In this document: positions 30,001 to 42,000 of the stretch, piece after piece
Numbering within the stretch: position 1 is the stretch's first letter
How the letters are laid out: the number at the start of each line of letters is the position of its first letter
Assembly (NCBI GenBank): GCA_963820525.1
Contig: CAWGAA010000001.1
Coordinates: 2,080,001-2,144,000 of the forward strand
DNA length: 64,000 nt
Direction of reading: 5' to 3'
DNA from: an uncultured Spirochaetota bacterium
GTDB taxonomy: Bacteria > Spirochaetota > Spirochaetia > SZUA-6 > Fen-1364
Made by a program: the position numbers

Positions 30001-33000
30001 TGTGCTTCGAAGAAGCGGCCTTCCCCTGGAACAGGCCATCGCCGTGGGGGGAAGGACGCGCTTGAAGCCGATCCTCATGAGCACGGGCACCACGATCCTG
30101 GGGCTCCTTCCCATGGCACTGGGGATGGGAACCGGCGCGGAGCTCCGCGCTCCCATGGCGCGGGCAGTGTTCGGCGGTCTCGCCTCCTCCACCCTCATAA
30201 CCTTGATCCTGATCCCGACCATCTATTGGGTCGTGGAGACAAAGCTGAAAAGGAAGAAAACGGCATGAAACGCCACCTCGTTCTCGCCCTGGCGCTGGCC
30301 GTCGCAGCCTGTCAGGCCGGCGGCGAGCCTTTGTCCATCGACGCGGCCTACGCGGCGGTCACCACGGCCTCCGAGGCGGTCCGCGTGAAGCGCCTGGAGC
30401 TGGAGAAATCCAGCGCCCGCCATGCCCAGGCCGTAACGCAGGCGTTCCCCCGGCTGGACGTGCAGGCCTCGGGCTCCTATATGACAAACCCGCCGGCGGG
30501 CATCACGGTCCCCGCGGGCTCCCTGGGAACCCTTCCGCCCGCCCTCGGCTCCCTGCCGCTGCCTCCCCAGGATACATCGGTGGTCGAGGCCGCCAAGAGC
30601 ACCACGATGAAGGTTGACGCCACCCTGTCACAGCCGCTTTTCACCTGGGGAAAGATCTCCAACGCCATCCGCCTGGCCTCCCTGGAGGTGGAGGCGTCCG
30701 GGGCCCAGCTCGCCGGACAGGAGCGCGACACGGAGCACGACGTGCACGCCGCCTACTTCGGCGCGCTCCTTGCAGAGCAGTCCGCTTCCGCGCTTTCTTC
30801 AATGCGCACGATACTTACGGGCATCCTGGAAGACAGGCGCAAGTCCTTTGGCGAGGGAACGATCATCCGCCAGCAGGTTCTGGAAGCCGAGTCGAACGTG
30901 GCCTCCCTTGACAGCCGGCTCACAGATGCAGAGGAAAGCAGGAGAACCGCGTACGAGAGCCTCGGCTACCTCACGGGTCTCGACCCCCAGGCCATCACCC
31001 TCGCCACCCCCTTTCGCTCCGAAATCCCGGAGCTGGACGAGGAGGTCCTGAAGGAGGCCGCGCTCAAGGGCTCGAGCGCGCTCGCTCTCAGCCGAACCAG
31101 GGTGAGCCAGGCGCGGGTGCGCCTGGATATCGAGCGGGGCGGCTCGGCCCTTCTTCCCGATCTGTCGCTTCTGGCCACGCTCGAGGTGACATCCCCGCAG
31201 AGCCCGCTTCTGGGCGGCTCGATGAGCGCGTGGACCGCCAACTTCATCGTCAGCGTCGCCGGTAGGGTCCGCGTGATCGACAGCGGGGAATCCTGCTTCA
31301 AGGTCCAGCAGGCCCAGAAGGACATGGAGGAAGCCGGGGAGGGACTCTCCGGCGCCGAAAAGGCCCTGAAGCTCTCCGTGAGAAAAGGCGTTCAGGCGGC
31401 TCGAAGCGCCGCCGGCGCGGCACGCGAGAAGGCGGCGCGTTTGGCGGCGGCGGAGGAGCAGGCCAAAAACGCGCGCGTCTCCTTCCAGAACGGCCTGTCC
31501 ACGCGGGAGGAGCTCTCATCCGCGGAGCTCGCCCTTGCCCAGGCCCGCCTTGACGGAATTCTGGCCGGCTACAATCTCGAGGAATCCCTTGGCAGCCTGG
31601 AATACATTACGGGGGTGAAGCTGCCGCGCTGAAACCTCACCGCTTGTTCTTCGACATCTCCTCCCGCGCGATCCCGACGATCTCGCGGGTCTTGCCGTCC
31701 TCTCCCGTCATGACGGAGCCGGAAAAGAGCATCGGCACTTCGGTCCCCTCCTTAGTGCGGTACTTCATCTCGTAGTTGGCGACGGACCCTGCGGCGAGCA
31801 GGCCAACGATGCCTTCCTCGGTGAACAGGACCTCCCCCCTTCCCACCACCTCCCTCATGTGCCGGCCGACGAGCTCCTCCTCCCGGTAGCCCAGCCGCCT
31901 GCAGGTGGCCCTGTTCACGCTCTTGATGGTGCCGCCCAGGTCCAGGATCACAAGCGTGTCTCCCATGTCGTTGAGGCTGCCGAGGATGTTCTCATTGTAC
32001 GTCTTCACGCTCACCAGGTTCACGATCGTTTTGTACAGAAGGATGCCCTGGGAGATGATGGCCCGGATCGTGCGCAAGAGCTCAAGCTCGTGCGCGTCAA
32101 CGTTCTGACTCCCCGTTCGGTTGGAGAGGATGAGCATCCCCAGCGTGTCGCGGCCGCCGCGGAGAGGCAGAAACACGAAGGAAGAAATAAGGCTCTTCAC
32201 CCCCGCGTCGATGTCGGGCCTATTGGCGAGGATCCTGTTGATGTCTTCCATGGGGATGGGGAGAACTTCCCCGGGGCTCTTGGATTCCGCCGTGAGCTGC
32301 AGATGCAGCTCGCATGCCACGCCGGCCGCCGCTTCGCTCACCGGGTCCAGCGAATACTTCTTGAAGCTTCCCCCCTTCTCGAAGGACACAAGCGCGCACG
32401 CATCGCAGGTGAGGAAGCTCTTGAGTATCTGCACGATGGAGGTCATGACGGAGTCGAAATCGGCGGAGCTTCGAAACCGCTCGCTCAGGATGAACAGAAG
32501 CGTCTGCTCGGACAGCCTCCTTTCCATTTCACGGAAGATGATGCTCTTCTCGATTGCCGTGGCAGTCTGGTTGGCTATTGTATTGAGGAACCGCAGGTCC
32601 TCGTTGTTGTACATTGTGCCGGCAAGCTTCGGTCCCATAATCAGGGTTCCCATGAGCTTGTCTTTCAACAACACCGGCACCACCAGGGAGATGTCGGCAC
32701 CTTTGAAGAGGTGGTGGTTGTCCTCGAGGATGGGGCGGGCGCAGGGATCCATGAGGGCCTCTTCCCTCACCAGCGGCTTGCCCTCCTTACTGAGCCAGCG
32801 CGCCAGGGTGCTCTGCTCCCCGATGCCCAGATCCGTGGAGGGTCCGGGAGCGGAGCCGGCGGACTTGCGCACAGTGAAGGCGTTTCTCTGTTCATCGAGC
32901 AGCGCGATGGAAAGCCCCACGGGTTTGACGGTTTCCGCCACGGCATTGCCGACGAGATCGAGGATCCGCTCGGTGTCGTAGAGGTGGGTTACGTCGCGGC

Positions 33001-39000: not shown

Positions 39001-42000
39001 CCGAGCAAATCCCTCCCGCCGCCCGCAGGAGAACCGGCGGGGCGAAGCGGTCGCCGTTCAACAGCAGCGCCGCAAGGGCGGCGAGCAGGAGCGCCGCGGA
39101 GCCCGCGATCGAGCCCACGCGAAGCGCCCGCAGCCCGCGCCAATCGGCCCAATCGGAGAGGAGAAAGAGGGGAAAGCTCGCCGTGCCCGCGATGAGAGCG
39201 ATCACGCCTTGAGGTCCCGACATCTCATTCGCGTTCGAAGGCGATCAGGCAGATGTCGTCCTCGAAATCCCTGCTCACCCGCCACTGCAAAAGCTGGGCG
39301 TCGATTGCTGCCACTGCATCCTGAAGGTTCGCGCTCCTCGTCTTCCTGATCAGCGCCATGACCCGATCCTCCGAGAACTTCACCATGTCCGGGTTCCCGC
39401 AGTCGATGAGGCCATCAGAGTAGAAGAAAAGCCGGTCGCCCGGCTCCAGGGCGAGCTCGGATTCGGCAAGCTCGAGCTCGGGCGCGAGCCCGAGGGCGCG
39501 GCCGGGGACCCGCAGGATGTGGAGGCCGCCGTCGCCTTTCTGCCATACGGGATACGGCTGGCCCGCCCGCGCGATGGTGACCTTCCAATCCGTGGTGTCG
39601 ATGATGCCGTACAGGATGGAGAAATAGGGGATCCCCGAGGCCGGGACGAACTTCTCGTTCAGCTTCTCCATGACATCCCGCGGCGAGAGGGGATCCGCAT
39701 CGAGCAGCGGCAGCCGGCCGTGCGGGCTGGAGGGTGAGGGAAAGATCAGGCGGTGCAGGAGAAGCGAATTGACGGCGGAAGCAAGACCGTGGCCCGCAAC
39801 GTCGATCATGTACAGGCAGACGTGGCGGGAATCAACGGGGAAGGCGTTGAACAGGTCTCCGGCGGCGAGGTCCGAGGGATGGAACAGCCATTGCACGCGA
39901 AGGCCGGGAATCTCCACGTCTTCGCGGGGAAGCAGGTTCCTCTGCAGCTCGAGGGCCTGCGCGAGCTCGCGGGAAACGATGTCGCGGAACTTCGTGCGCT
40001 CCGTGACGTCCCGGAACGCCAGAACGACCCCGCGGACATTGCCGTTTTCATCCCGATAGGGGGCGAGGGTGCAATCCACGCGGATCCGCCCGCGGTCCCT
40101 GGTGAGGAGAATGAGATCCGTCATCTCCGCGATCTCGCCGCTCTTGACCACCCGGGCGAGCGGAACAACCACCTTTTCCAGGGTCTCGGCGTCGAAGACC
40201 GTGAGGATCTGTCCAAGGCACACGCCGGAGCCGGCGTGCTCGCTGCCCAGGAGGGTCCTCTGCGCCGTGGGGTTGAGATACTCGACCAGCCCCTTGGTAT
40301 CCGCCACGACCACCCCTTCGCCGATGGAGCGCAGGATCGTCTGCAGCTTTTCCTTTGCGCGCCAGAGCTTCCCCTCCATCGTCGACTTGTAGAGGGCCAT
40401 CTCCACGGTGGCCTGCAGGGTCCTCTCTTCGAAGGGCTTGGTGATATAGCCGAAGGGCTCCGTCAGCTTCGCCCTCTCCAGGGTCTTCTCTTCCGAGTAT
40501 GCCGTAAGATAGACGATGGGCACGCGGAATGCCTCCCGGATCATCCCCGCCGCCTCGACACCATCGATGACGCCCTTGAGGCGGATGTCCATGAGGATGA
40601 GGTCGGGCTCCACCTCCATGGCCTTGCGCACCGCCTCCTCGCCGGTGGATACGGTGACGGGCACCTCGTAGCCCATGTTCTTGAGGCTTTTCTCAATCGC
40701 GAGCGCGACGAGACTTTCGTCCTCGACGATCATGATTCGCGATTTCTCCATGCCATTACCCCGAAGAGCCGTCCCGTTTGATATGCACCTCACAATGTAG
40801 CGAAAAAGAGGACGAATTTCCATGGCGGGGCAGCCGTGCAACACACACCCGTTTGTCTCCCCCGAACGGACGGATTACTTTTTTTACGTGAAGGGAGAAT
40901 GTCCCATGTCGCACGCGGGTCGCTCGCTGAACACCGATTCGTCGACTTACTCCGCGGCACTTCCCTACACTACCCTGCCGCAGCTTTTGCGCGCCGTTAC
41001 AGCCTCCTTCAACCGGGATGACGCCCTGAACTATCCCCTCGATGGGCCTCAGCCCGTAGAGGCGGCGCCCGGCCCGTTGGACGCATTGTAAAAAGATGAT
41101 CTTTTGCTTGACAGAATGTATAACATTTGTTATAATAACTTGAGTTATACAGAGGAGGCTATGACACAGAAGATTTCATTCACAAAGGAGATGATCGTCG
41201 AGGTCGCCTTTTCCCTGACCAGGGAGTTGGGGTGGTCCGCCGTGACAGCCCGAAGCATCGCCAAGAAGCTCGGATCTTCCACCATGCCGATTTACTCGAG
41301 CATGAGATCAATGGAAGAGATCGAGCAGGAGGTGAGAAAAAAGGGTGAGAAGCTCATGTTCGATTACCAAAAGCGCTCCTTTACCGACAAGCCGATGCTC
41401 AACATGGCGATCGGCTATGTCACCTTCGCCCGGGACGAGCAGAAGCTTTTCCGCTTCCTGTTCGTGGATCGCCCCGTTGCCGTCAGCCGGCAGGACGTAG
41501 AGCCGGAGCCCGGAGAGCCGGAGCCGGGCTACGCACCGTTGAACGGAGTCGTAACCCTCGCCGATCAAGCGCCCACCGCGATGAAGAACCCGCTCGTACT
41601 GAAGAACTGGATCTTCACGCACGGCCTGGCATCGATGATCTCGGCCGGGGTCCTGGACCTGGCGGACGAGAGGATTCGAAGCCTGCTCGAGGAGGCGGGG
41701 GGAGCGTTCTACAAAGAAAGGAAGGAAAGAAGGAATGGGTGAAGTCGTGGTTTCCGTGAGGAACTTCAGAAAGCGCTATGGGGACACCGTGGCGGTCAAG
41801 GGTATCACCTTTGAGGTGAACCGGGGCGAGATCTTCGCGCTCCTGGGGCCGAACGGCTCGGGCAAGACGAGCACCCTGGAAAGCCTCGAAGGGCTGCGGC
41901 ATCCCGACGGAGGAGTCCTTTCGATCTCCGGGATAGACCCCAGCAGGCAGCCGCGGAGGCTTCGAAACATCATCGGGGTCCAGCTGCAGACCTCTGCGCT

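Follow-up and report, generated by a model that had tools for sequence, protein, structure and literature searches.

A run of five genes in the 64,000-nucleotide stretch of DNA analyzed here (the window) includes a relative of the GH3 enzymes that conjugate plant hormones, a putative membrane methyltransferase, and a receptor with seven helices and a GPCR-like shape. Many anaerobic bacteria keep these three together, which suggests a chemical signal, not described so far, for which a single gene set would provide both production and sensing. We assign a probability of about 0.6 to the reading that this cassette encodes the synthase of a methylated N-acyl amide signal together with its cognate receptor. 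The initial annotation had proposed such a synthase and receptor; this is still the best reading, and was strengthened by clade-specific pairing of the two genes, variable outputs, co-phylogeny, a GPCR-like pocket, and methyltransferase fusions and substitutes. It had also regarded the acyl-amide system as possibly new. No description of the GH3-7TM cassette was found in the literature searched, in which subscription journals were mostly uncovered and supplements lay outside the search, but the chemistry of a bacterial GH3 enzyme, OlsH, has already been published (PMC12493201, in excerpt).

All five open reading frames of the run were found as annotated, on the minus strand, in the order REC-PAS-SpoIIE, ICMT/PEMT-like, GH3, S1, and S2, with intergenic gaps of 1, 18, 7, and 131 nt (Table 1). 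The end given earlier for the run, 40733, does fall within the first gene, but the ORF starts at 40751 and 40733 is an internal Met. Both HisKA_7TM-GAF-PAS sensors were present, but the title of the annotation had omitted the complete HisKA_2 kinase of S1. A promoter and terminator scan gave nothing specific to the operon, and no plasmid match was found.

Table 1. Genes of the cassette, with positions in the window.
Predicted product	Length (aa)	Position	Strand	Basis
REC-PAS-SpoIIE (RsbU-type PP2C phosphatase)	508	39225..40751	-	Pfam
ICMT/PEMT-superfamily integral membrane methyltransferase-like protein	205	38606..39223	-	Family profile, motif
GH3-family adenylating acyl-acid amido synthetase (predicted), soluble	535	36980..38587	-	Pfam
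S1, 7TM + 2 TM + GAF + GAF + PAS + HisKA_2/HATPase histidine kinase	974	34048..36972	-	Pfam
S2, tandem S1 paralogue, HisKA_7TM-GAF-GAF-PAS, no kinase	759	31637..33916	-	Pfam, BLASTP

Within the clade, pairing of GH3 and the 7TM receptor is far beyond chance and almost obligate, and the claim that it is widely conserved held. Where 1.5 kb or more of sequence lay downstream of a clade GH3 gene, a 7TM gene was no farther than 3.5 kb away in 91 of 91 loci, or 41 of 41 after clustering at 70% identity; none of five canonical GH3 loci had the receptor. Kin are not independent in these counts, and some of the counted loci also went into building the profiles. The receptor was present at 29 of 30 clade loci in Erysipelotrichales, the 30th lying at a contig end, and at 21 of 22 in Chloroflexota, four of these after an inversion. 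Among 61 related genomes, a high-scoring receptor subfamily was found in the 13 with a clade GH3 and in one other, and in 0 of the remaining 47. Of the other matches of the 7TM profile, 20 loci were inspected, 19 with low-scoring HisKA_7TM-like genes without an adjacent clade GH3 or clade methyltransferase; no alternative synthase beside these 19 was obvious by eye. Distribution was patchy, with 10 of 24 in the family to which the window belongs and three different subclades among them, and protein clusters at 90% identity numbered at least 2,687. The metagenome scan, made with a 12-row alignment, covered the best 80 of 556 and is therefore skewed to close relatives. Neighbor clustering revealed no conserved exporter or regulon in the cassette loci. 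The earlier HisKA_7TM-GH3_M pairing count of 680/3,740 is probably low, as most GH3_M genes appear to be canonical unlinked GH3s.

In 44 receptors the input was constant while the output varied between four kinase types, GGDEF/HD-GYP, and STAS. Tree distances of GH3 and the 7TM domain were correlated with r = 0.90, compared to 0.74 for the 7TM domain and its own GAF region, which was cut at a fixed offset. With equal column numbers the values were 0.74 and 0.59, in this order in 200 of 200 resamplings. The candidate synthase and the receptor genes were thus found adjacent and co-diverging, as in a quorum pair. Such co-phylogeny is expected of any co-inherited operon.

The three domains reported for the GH3 protein (GH3, GH3_M, and GH3_C) all scored above the Pfam cut-off (40, 34, and 31 bits against 23.6), with the N-terminal GH3 domain at 40 bits compared to 166–246 in canonical GH3s. 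The plant amido synthetase given as best PDB match (E 3e-7) was recovered as OsGH3.8 at E 2.8e-7. The reference nucleotide-binding motifs of GH3 are SSGT.., YGSSE, and RYRxGD (PMC12493201, in excerpt). All three ATP motifs were intact: motif I is T101-S102-G103, motif II Y294..T297-E298, and motif III R368-Y369 and G372-D373, with E298 kept in 46 and R368 in all of 48 aligned rows. K513 near the C-terminus was also conserved, and the C-terminal K-x-P motif of GH3 type aligned with plant GH3. The predicted model (pLDDT 90) had plant GH3s at Foldseek ranks 1–14, the best being AtGH3.15 (E 5e-22, TM 0.69), and auxin-inactivating GH3s among its top structural matches. PaaK-type CoA ligases (PaaK and BT_0428) followed closely at E ~1e-18. 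As a predicted amido synthetase, the enzyme would form its amide without CoA.

In the GH3 tree the receptor-linked clade formed a branch of its own with support 98. The NCBIfam equivalog model for OlsH (NF052613, cut-off 620) gave 33 bits for the window GH3, 37 for the homologue L001, and 429 for the canonical GH3 L076. OlsH identity was rejected; judged by sequence, the window GH3 is a member of a distinct receptor-linked clade. No GH3-receptor fusion was found among GH3 proteins of 981–2800 aa, which is weak evidence.

As a single sequence the 205-aa membrane protein fell below the Pfam cut-off for DUF1295/PEMT. The profile of its family (37 rows) matched Methanosarcina acetivorans ICMT (PDB 4A2N, E 1.2e-6) and beetle ICMT and kept the C-terminal SAM-pocket motif, in agreement with the PEMT/ICMT-like call made before. 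The conserved motif is G-x-Y-x3-R-H-P, an acidic residue, and Y-x2-Y; G, Y, R, P, both Tyr, and Q/E followed by D/E occurred in 37/37 rows and His in 34/37. The His and Glu of the ICMT family are named as SAM contacts (10.1101/2023.08.17.553728, in excerpt). Cut-offs of named equivalogs (ICMT, LmtA, and MddA) were not reached, the best E among the 37 members being 4.5e-8, and reductases are among the related folds (weak Steroid_dh match). From these sequence features the protein is a putative SAM-dependent methyltransferase of ICMT/PEMT type.

Five proteins were found to be methyltransferase-GH3 fusions (P0011, P0041, P0045, P0259, and L284). Adjacent methylases belonged to three unrelated folds, one or another of them being present in 32 of 40 clusters and none in the other eight. 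In some loci the membrane protein is accompanied or replaced by a class I methylase, a B12-radical-SAM methylase, ThiF, or FabF; inserts within the cassette were FabF, which in Dehalococcoidia-type loci separates GH3 from the receptor, ThiF/PRK08223-like, and B12 radical SAM. Complex prediction for the methyltransferase and the 7TM domain scored 0.00, which is informative in neither direction.

HisKA_7TM (PF16927) was detected in S1 and S2 at 57 and 47 bits (cut-off 28.6), in agreement with Atlas features, and S1 ends in HisKA_2 and HATPase_c, a complete histidine kinase by Pfam. The predicted model of S1 residues 1–300 (pLDDT 88) gave only 7TM GPCR-type folds among the top 50 rows of a VIA search; the best row had Z 16.7 (rmsd 3.8, 208 aligned), where helical bundles can reach about 14 by chance, and lipid GPCRs were among the tied top rows. 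Foldseek matched GPCRs at E 1e-4 (TM 0.4–0.5). The loops follow the positive-inside pattern, the outer loop forms a beta-hairpin, and the conserved W46, W65, N188, P196, and D198 lie in the outer half. The 7TM domain is thus modeled with the topology and fold of a GPCR, analogy and homology not being separated; a profile search of the family against PDB matched no GPCR. A shared fold does not show function, and the outputs fused to HisKA_7TM receptors, kinases or c-di-GMP domains, speak against G-protein coupling. S1 is the putative cognate receptor for the GH3 product. Excerpts of the two reviews that name HisKA_7TM give no ligand for it. S1 and S2 aligned weakly with the PrsK model TIGR02916 (residues 12–457, E 1e-12), but PrsK identity was rejected at 38–47 bits against a cut-off of 300, with no PEP-CTERM or exosortase among recurring neighbors. 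When the 7TM family was compared by profile to a DUF835-type receptor beside L052, the result was E 0.037 at a probability of 1.4%.

If the cassette is a signal synthase with its receptor, GH3 would use ATP to adenylate a carboxylic acid, with fatty acids or similarly lipophilic ones the likeliest substrates, and couple it to an amine, for which an amino acid is the likeliest candidate. The resulting amphiphile would be methylated with SAM by the ICMT-like enzyme, most simply at the free carboxyl as an ester, and the methyl ester would be a neutral molecule that enters and crosses the membrane. The product could dock in the 7TM domain, in the pocket that faces outward, and the signal, possibly reporting cell density, would pass through two further helices and GAF/PAS to the lineage-specific output. 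In the window the HisKA_2 kinase may phosphorylate the neighboring REC-PAS-SpoIIE protein and evoke a partner-switch (anti-anti-sigma) response, and S2 could tune S1 as a heterodimer. A relative, G007, which keeps methyltransferase and receptor while the clade GH3 is absent, fits poorly with a methyltransferase that serves synthesis only.

Speaking against a signal, OlsH, the only characterized bacterial GH3, produces a bulk membrane lipid, and it too has a methyltransferase beside it. From a fatty acid, with ATP, OlsH forms an N-acyl amino acid (PMC12493201, in excerpt), and OlsH-OlsG-OlsI is the ornithine-lipid operon of Singulisphaera acidiphila (PMC12493201; PMC12971839, both in excerpt). 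With this chemistry in print, bacteria were already known to have enzymes of the GH3 class, and a membrane amino-lipid module has to be weighed. In such a module the methylated N-acyl amino lipid would stay in the membrane of its producer, where the 7TM domain would sense either the amount of this lipid or the state of the membrane, and no signal would pass between cells. The OlsH-OlsG precedent, the membrane-embedded tailoring enzyme, FabF within the cassette, the lipid GPCRs among the fold matches, and the lack of an exporter in the loci are consistent with this. We nevertheless consider it rather unlikely, since OlsH scores were 33–37 bits, canonical OlsH-like GH3s lack the receptor, clustering alone gave no recurring OlsI-like alpha/beta-hydrolase family among neighbors, and patchy distribution and receptor-enzyme co-divergence better suit a private signal. 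As far as the excerpts go, the window GH3 resembles OlsH in being a bacterial GH3 with three nucleotide-binding motifs encoded beside a SAM methyltransferase. It differs in its separate clade, in clade loci without a recurring O-acyltransferase (neighbor clustering), in the ICMT/PEMT type of the methyltransferase, and in the obligate 7TM receptor, absent at OlsH-like loci.

Plant GH3.5 and GH3.6 inactivate auxin by conjugation. The receptor could likewise sense an external acid, either a cue of another organism or a metabolite, with GH3 and methyltransferase switching the signal off by conjugating and methylating this acid. Linkage and co-phylogeny fit signal removal equally well, and the auxin-inactivating GH3s among the structural matches and the retention of receptor and methyltransferase without GH3 in G007 are consistent with it. 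It is unlikely, however, as the biosynthetic additions FabF, ThiF/PRK08223-like, and B12 radical SAM favor synthesis over disposal, and clade GH3 almost never occurs without the receptor and the receptor rarely without clade GH3. That GH3 is a PaaK-like acyl-CoA ligase or adenylate-forming partner, whose coupling to the receptor would provide a metabolic (flux) sensor, is highly improbable: the Foldseek proximity of PaaK and BT_0428, the name 'PaaK-like' given to homologues in some sources, and the low N-domain score stand against three GH3 domains above cut-off, the K-x-P alignment, the 14 best Foldseek ranks, and a fused methyltransferase, for which a CoA ligase would have little use.

A signal synthase with its receptor has known counterparts. 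In LuxM-LuxN, CqsA-CqsS, and PhcB-PhcS the autoinducer synthase gene lies beside that of a polytopic membrane sensor kinase, and the PhcB-PhcS signal is a methyl-esterified fatty acid. The cassette shares this arrangement, and with PhcB the proposed methyl esterification, but has an ATP-dependent GH3 as predicted synthase, a GPCR-like HisKA_7TM receptor, and outputs that include c-di-GMP enzymes and STAS besides kinases. Plant GH3s (JAR1/GH3.11, GH3.5, GH3.6, GH3.12, and GH3.15) share fold and motifs with the window GH3 at 15–18% identity; the plant hormone receptor for a GH3 product is a soluble F-box protein, whereas the cassette has a membrane receptor. The methyltransferase-like protein has the ICMT fold motif but belongs to a different subfamily and context, and it has lost ICMT Tyr129 and Arg163, the latter a substrate-binding residue, so that it may methylate a different acceptor. 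RhlM of the ICMT family methyl-esterifies a secreted amphiphile, and RhlM and ICMTs (PDB 4A2N) act on amphiphilic carboxylates (10.1101/2023.08.17.553728, in excerpt). The JAR1 product is an active signal (PMC12493201, in excerpt). N-acyl-cyclolysine of Bacteroidota is an acyl-amide signal whose two enzymes are encoded beside its receptor (PMC13080023, which also mentions CqsA; PMC13419125, both in excerpt). An acyl amide is likewise the proposed product here, but that receptor is a cytoplasmic LuxR-family repressor and the cassette has no LuxR-type ligand-binding receptor. The N-acyl amino acid synthases found with PEP-CTERM/PrsK (Craig 2011, as cited) and the stieleriacine cluster (PMC7293339, in excerpt) likewise combine such a synthase with a methyltransferase and TcdA/ThiF-like tailoring, and S1 and S2 align weakly with PrsK. 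These synthases use acyl-ACP and are unrelated to GH3, and no PEP-CTERM or exosortase family recurs near the cassette.

The fixed enzyme-receptor pair joins the HisKA_7TM ligand and bacterial GH3 function in one direct experiment. The modeled fold may bear on the origin of 7TM ligand sensing. A cell-to-cell signal would add a quorum-type system to groups that have few known ones (organohalide-respiring Dehalococcoidia, gut and digester Erysipelotrichales, and syntrophs). Somewhat short of an even chance, the cassette could be a widespread but undescribed cell-to-cell language of anaerobes, in which tailored N-acyl amides made by a GH3 of plant-hormone type bind in the transmembrane pocket of a GPCR-fold receptor, and each lineage has its own dialect, determined by its methylases, ThiF, and ketosynthase. 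Its hosts would be spirochaete-like sediment bacteria, Dehalococcoidia, Anaerolineae, Erysipelotrichales, and syntrophic Bacillota, and archaea would have a sister form. If this bolder reading is true, HisKA_7TM would gain its first class of ligands, and lipid-amide sensing by GPCRs a prokaryotic model.

Two genes of the run were found to be local. The SpoIIE phosphatase is present here as annotated (Response_reg 76, PAS_4 49, and SpoIIE 111 bits in Pfam; top NCBIfam match a PhyR-type receiver), but relatives lie upstream in just two other loci, L138 and L136, by clustering of neighbors. It was ruled out as a core cassette gene and is probably the local output of the S1 kinase. S2 is likewise a local addition. 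It is 69% identical to S1 (BLASTP and DNA alignment) and stops after PAS, with an 8-residue deletion followed by a stop and no output domain. An assembly artefact was ruled out by synonymous changes of its own throughout and by contigs of two other strains with the same end, 29 letters covering one side of the junction. The dN/dS between S2 and S1 was 0.12–0.39 in all five segments. Both conserved pocket tryptophans (46 and 65) are changed to Leu in S2, the only one of 65 rows without an aromatic residue at both positions, and S2 is best explained as a copy that has been maintained although it lacks the kinase and its pocket has changed.

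We collected 124 loci, of which 117 belong to the receptor-linked branch of GH3 that includes the GH3 of the window (clade GH3) and seven do not. A 7TM gene was located within 3.5 kb in all 91 clade loci having at least 1.5 kb downstream, and the pairing was the same when counted by cluster (76/76 at 90% and 41/41 at 70%). The 13 clade loci without a 7TM gene all end within 1.4 kb. Since the search profiles were derived partly from the counted loci, two further samples were tested. Erysipelotrichales carried clade GH3 in 30 of 201 genomes; the receptor gene was directly downstream in 29, the remaining one being at a contig end, and the methyltransferase gene was directly upstream of clade GH3 in 29 of the 30. 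Chloroflexota carried it in 20 of 251 genomes (22 loci), with a receptor present at 21 loci. Four of these receptors, in small genomes (L285, L287, L288, and L289), were encoded in the opposite orientation, approximately 3 kb upstream and beyond a conserved gene of 365 aa, and throughout this lineage a protein of 120-140 aa without a Pfam family lies ahead of the cassette. No receptor was found within 14 kb at the remaining Chloroflexota locus (G390). The canonical GH3 loci of the window's phylum had a receptor at none of five. Among 61 relatives, clade GH3 was found in 13 genomes and receptors scoring above 190 bits in the same 13 and in G007, the next score being 75 bits; the methyltransferase subfamily was found in six, always within the cassette. 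At loci L052 and L053, in two genomes of the same order as the window, a divergent or intermediate GH3 precedes a 720-aa membrane protein that has DUF835 at its end; comparing the L052 protein with the 7TM family by profile gave E 0.037 (probability 1.4%).

A synthase-receptor pair is the best explanation of the cassette, with a probability of roughly 0.6. LuxM/N, CqsA/S, and PhcB/S are reportedly pairs of this kind; the cassette would resemble them in its working, but differs in that its synthase is a GH3 and its receptor GPCR-like. The enzyme is a member of the GH3 family and the receptor a member of HisKA_7TM, whereas OlsH, PrsK, and a GPCR proper were all rejected as identities for the cassette proteins. 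We found no description of a GH3-receptor cassette in the literature searched, which included few subscription-journal papers. In L293 (genome G363), L105, and L291/L226 (genome G471), either a locus holds a pair of receptors or the genome holds a pair of complete cassettes, which suggests several signal channels per cell.

The initial annotation had left the methyltransferase call in doubt, and this doubt is answered in part. The family profile of the membrane protein matches ICMT structures (E 1e-6) and the SAM-pocket motif is kept, but two ICMT positions differ and the activity is a predicted one. Methyltransferase and GH3 are fused in P0011 and P0259 (Pfam PEMT), in P0041 and P0045 (motif by eye; the P0045 fusion has seven full-length members), and in L284. 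Among the 40 clusters that had sufficient flanking sequence on either side, an ICMT-like protein was present in 27, a class I SAM methyltransferase from two subfamilies in six, a B12 radical SAM protein in one, a ThiF-family protein in two, and FabF in two. Both methyltransferase kinds occurred in three loci; some methylase was present in 32 of the 40 clusters, and six had no tailoring gene. Further cases of B12 radical SAM, ThiF, or FabF genes inserted between those of GH3 and the receptor were found in L283, L284, L290, and L291. Because unrelated methylases occupy one slot, we argue that the product is methylated. The presence of FabF is a hint that the product has a fatty acyl part, but FabF comes from one lineage. 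At L077, a canonical GH3 closes a gene run that also holds two B12 radical SAM genes and other uncharacterised enzymes; this may be a separate biosynthetic cluster.

In genome G007 (L188) a receptor of the same subfamily is head-to-head with an ICMT-like gene and a receiver-HD protein. Clade GH3 was not found in this genome (97% complete), which has a canonical GH3 elsewhere. This speaks against a synthesis-only role of the methyltransferase, and G007 may be a solo listener, or its locus may be a remnant. The cassette might instead serve in-membrane lipid feedback, which we consider unlikely, or signal removal, which is somewhat less likely still.

For the GH3 enzyme itself, all three domains of the window protein score above the Pfam cut-offs and its C-terminal Lys motif can be aligned to that of plant GH3. 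The three nucleotide-binding motifs listed for OlsH and plant GH3s in PMC12493201 are conserved across 48 diverse homologues. In the ranking for the predicted model (pLDDT 90), plant GH3s come first, followed by PaaK-type ligases. That the cassette is a CoA-ligase or flux sensor is very improbable. The initial annotation, which proposed GH3, 7TM sensors, and a PEMT-like gene as a signal synthase and receptor module, had overlooked a characterised bacterial GH3. OlsH uses fatty acid and ATP to form N-acyl ornithine, and its gene adjoins the methyltransferase gene OlsG (PMC12493201). The window GH3 was rejected as an OlsH (33 bits vs. 620), and falls in a separate branch with support 98 in a FastTree of 30 rows, where long branches were flagged and group labels set partly by score. 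The clade is large: it has 187 representatives at 50% identity (E < 1e-30), and one member has at least 2,687 clusters at 90%.

The output domains of 44 receptor C-termini (at most two per cluster, some incomplete) were HisKA, hybrid HisKA-REC, HisKA_2, HisKA_3, GGDEF plus HD-GYP, or STAS, while the 7TM domain, two helices, and GAF were constant ahead of them. Tree distances of 69 non-redundant pairs correlated at 0.90 for GH3-7TM, 0.82 for GH3-GAF, and 0.74 for 7TM-GAF. With 140 columns each the values were 0.74, 0.65, and 0.59, and in every one of 200 draws the GH3-7TM value was higher than that for 7TM-GAF (partial r 0.58 vs. 0.20). The 7TM domain thus tracks GH3 closer than it tracks the GAF that follows it in the same protein, as would be expected if ligand and pocket were matched, although the values include co-inheritance and relatedness.

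The model of residues 1-300 of S1, the putative cognate receptor, has seven helices, basic inner loops, and a beta-hairpin in the stretch from helix 4 to helix 5 (pLDDT 88). Each of the top 50 VIA rows was a 7TM fold of GPCR type, with Z from 16.7 to 14.1 over some 210 aligned residues and a tie between adhesion, prostanoid, S1P, and class C receptors; Foldseek agreed weakly, and no sequence homology of the 7TM family to GPCRs was seen. Conserved residues W46 (59/65), W65 (54/65), N/D188, P196 (61/65), and D198 (52/65) are in the outer half by topology, where a ligand pocket would be.

Features of the window and of comparison loci (comparison loci in their own coordinates)
Feature	Position	Strand	Basis or remark
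REC-PAS-SpoIIE	39225-40751	-	Pfam
Membrane protein, 205 aa	38606-39223	-	ORF
GH3	36980-38587	-	Pfam
S1	34048-36972	-	Pfam; C-terminal HisKA_2/HATPase kinase complete
S2	31637-33916	-	Pfam; ends after PAS
17-nt absence, two other strains	39205-39228		
Efflux operon	25185-31632	+	TetR, MFP, RND, outer-membrane factor
RND ORFs	27088-29451, 28967-30268		
Sigma-70 promoter	41085-41136		perfect 12/12, extended -10
L052	8190-11964		
L053	451-4322		
L077	4170-10253		
L188 (G007:C3)	6704-11532		

The five ORFs, all on the minus strand, are spaced by 1, 18, 7, and 131 nt from SpoIIE to S2, the tandem paralogue of S1. Pfam bore out the domains first assigned to the run, and to the sensor domains of S1 it added the kinase. 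The genome has one GH3 and two such receptors, all at this locus. Wetland and freshwater sediment metagenomes carry near-identical DNA (six runs with at least half of the words, of which one may be the source); four runs were aligned. The host is probably a spirochaete, as the names of homologues at 51-52% identity weakly indicate. In the two strains lacking 17 nt at its start, the methyltransferase gene is whole, since an ATG overlapping the SpoIIE stop is then in frame.

A similar SpoIIE neighbour was found in only two other loci. The receiver and PP2C motifs of REC-PAS-SpoIIE appear by eye to be intact, so that gene order and the general logic of two-component systems make it the likely target of S1 here. 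S1 and S2 share 69% identity; by domain, identity climbs from 56% (7TM) to 92% (PAS), and dN/dS is 0.12-0.39. S2 lacks 24 nt ahead of the new stop; this end is identical in contigs of two other strains (29 letters on the short side). Both pocket aromatics are gone from S2, the one row of 65 in which this is so. Judged by sequence, S2 appears to be a kinase-less modulator that is being maintained, although the purifying selection may predate the truncation.

The efflux operon that converges on S2 is not conserved next to the cassette, and a frameshift has apparently divided its RND gene into two ORFs. The sigma-70 promoter precedes a TetR gene and an ABC-2 exporter, a unit divergent from the cassette.
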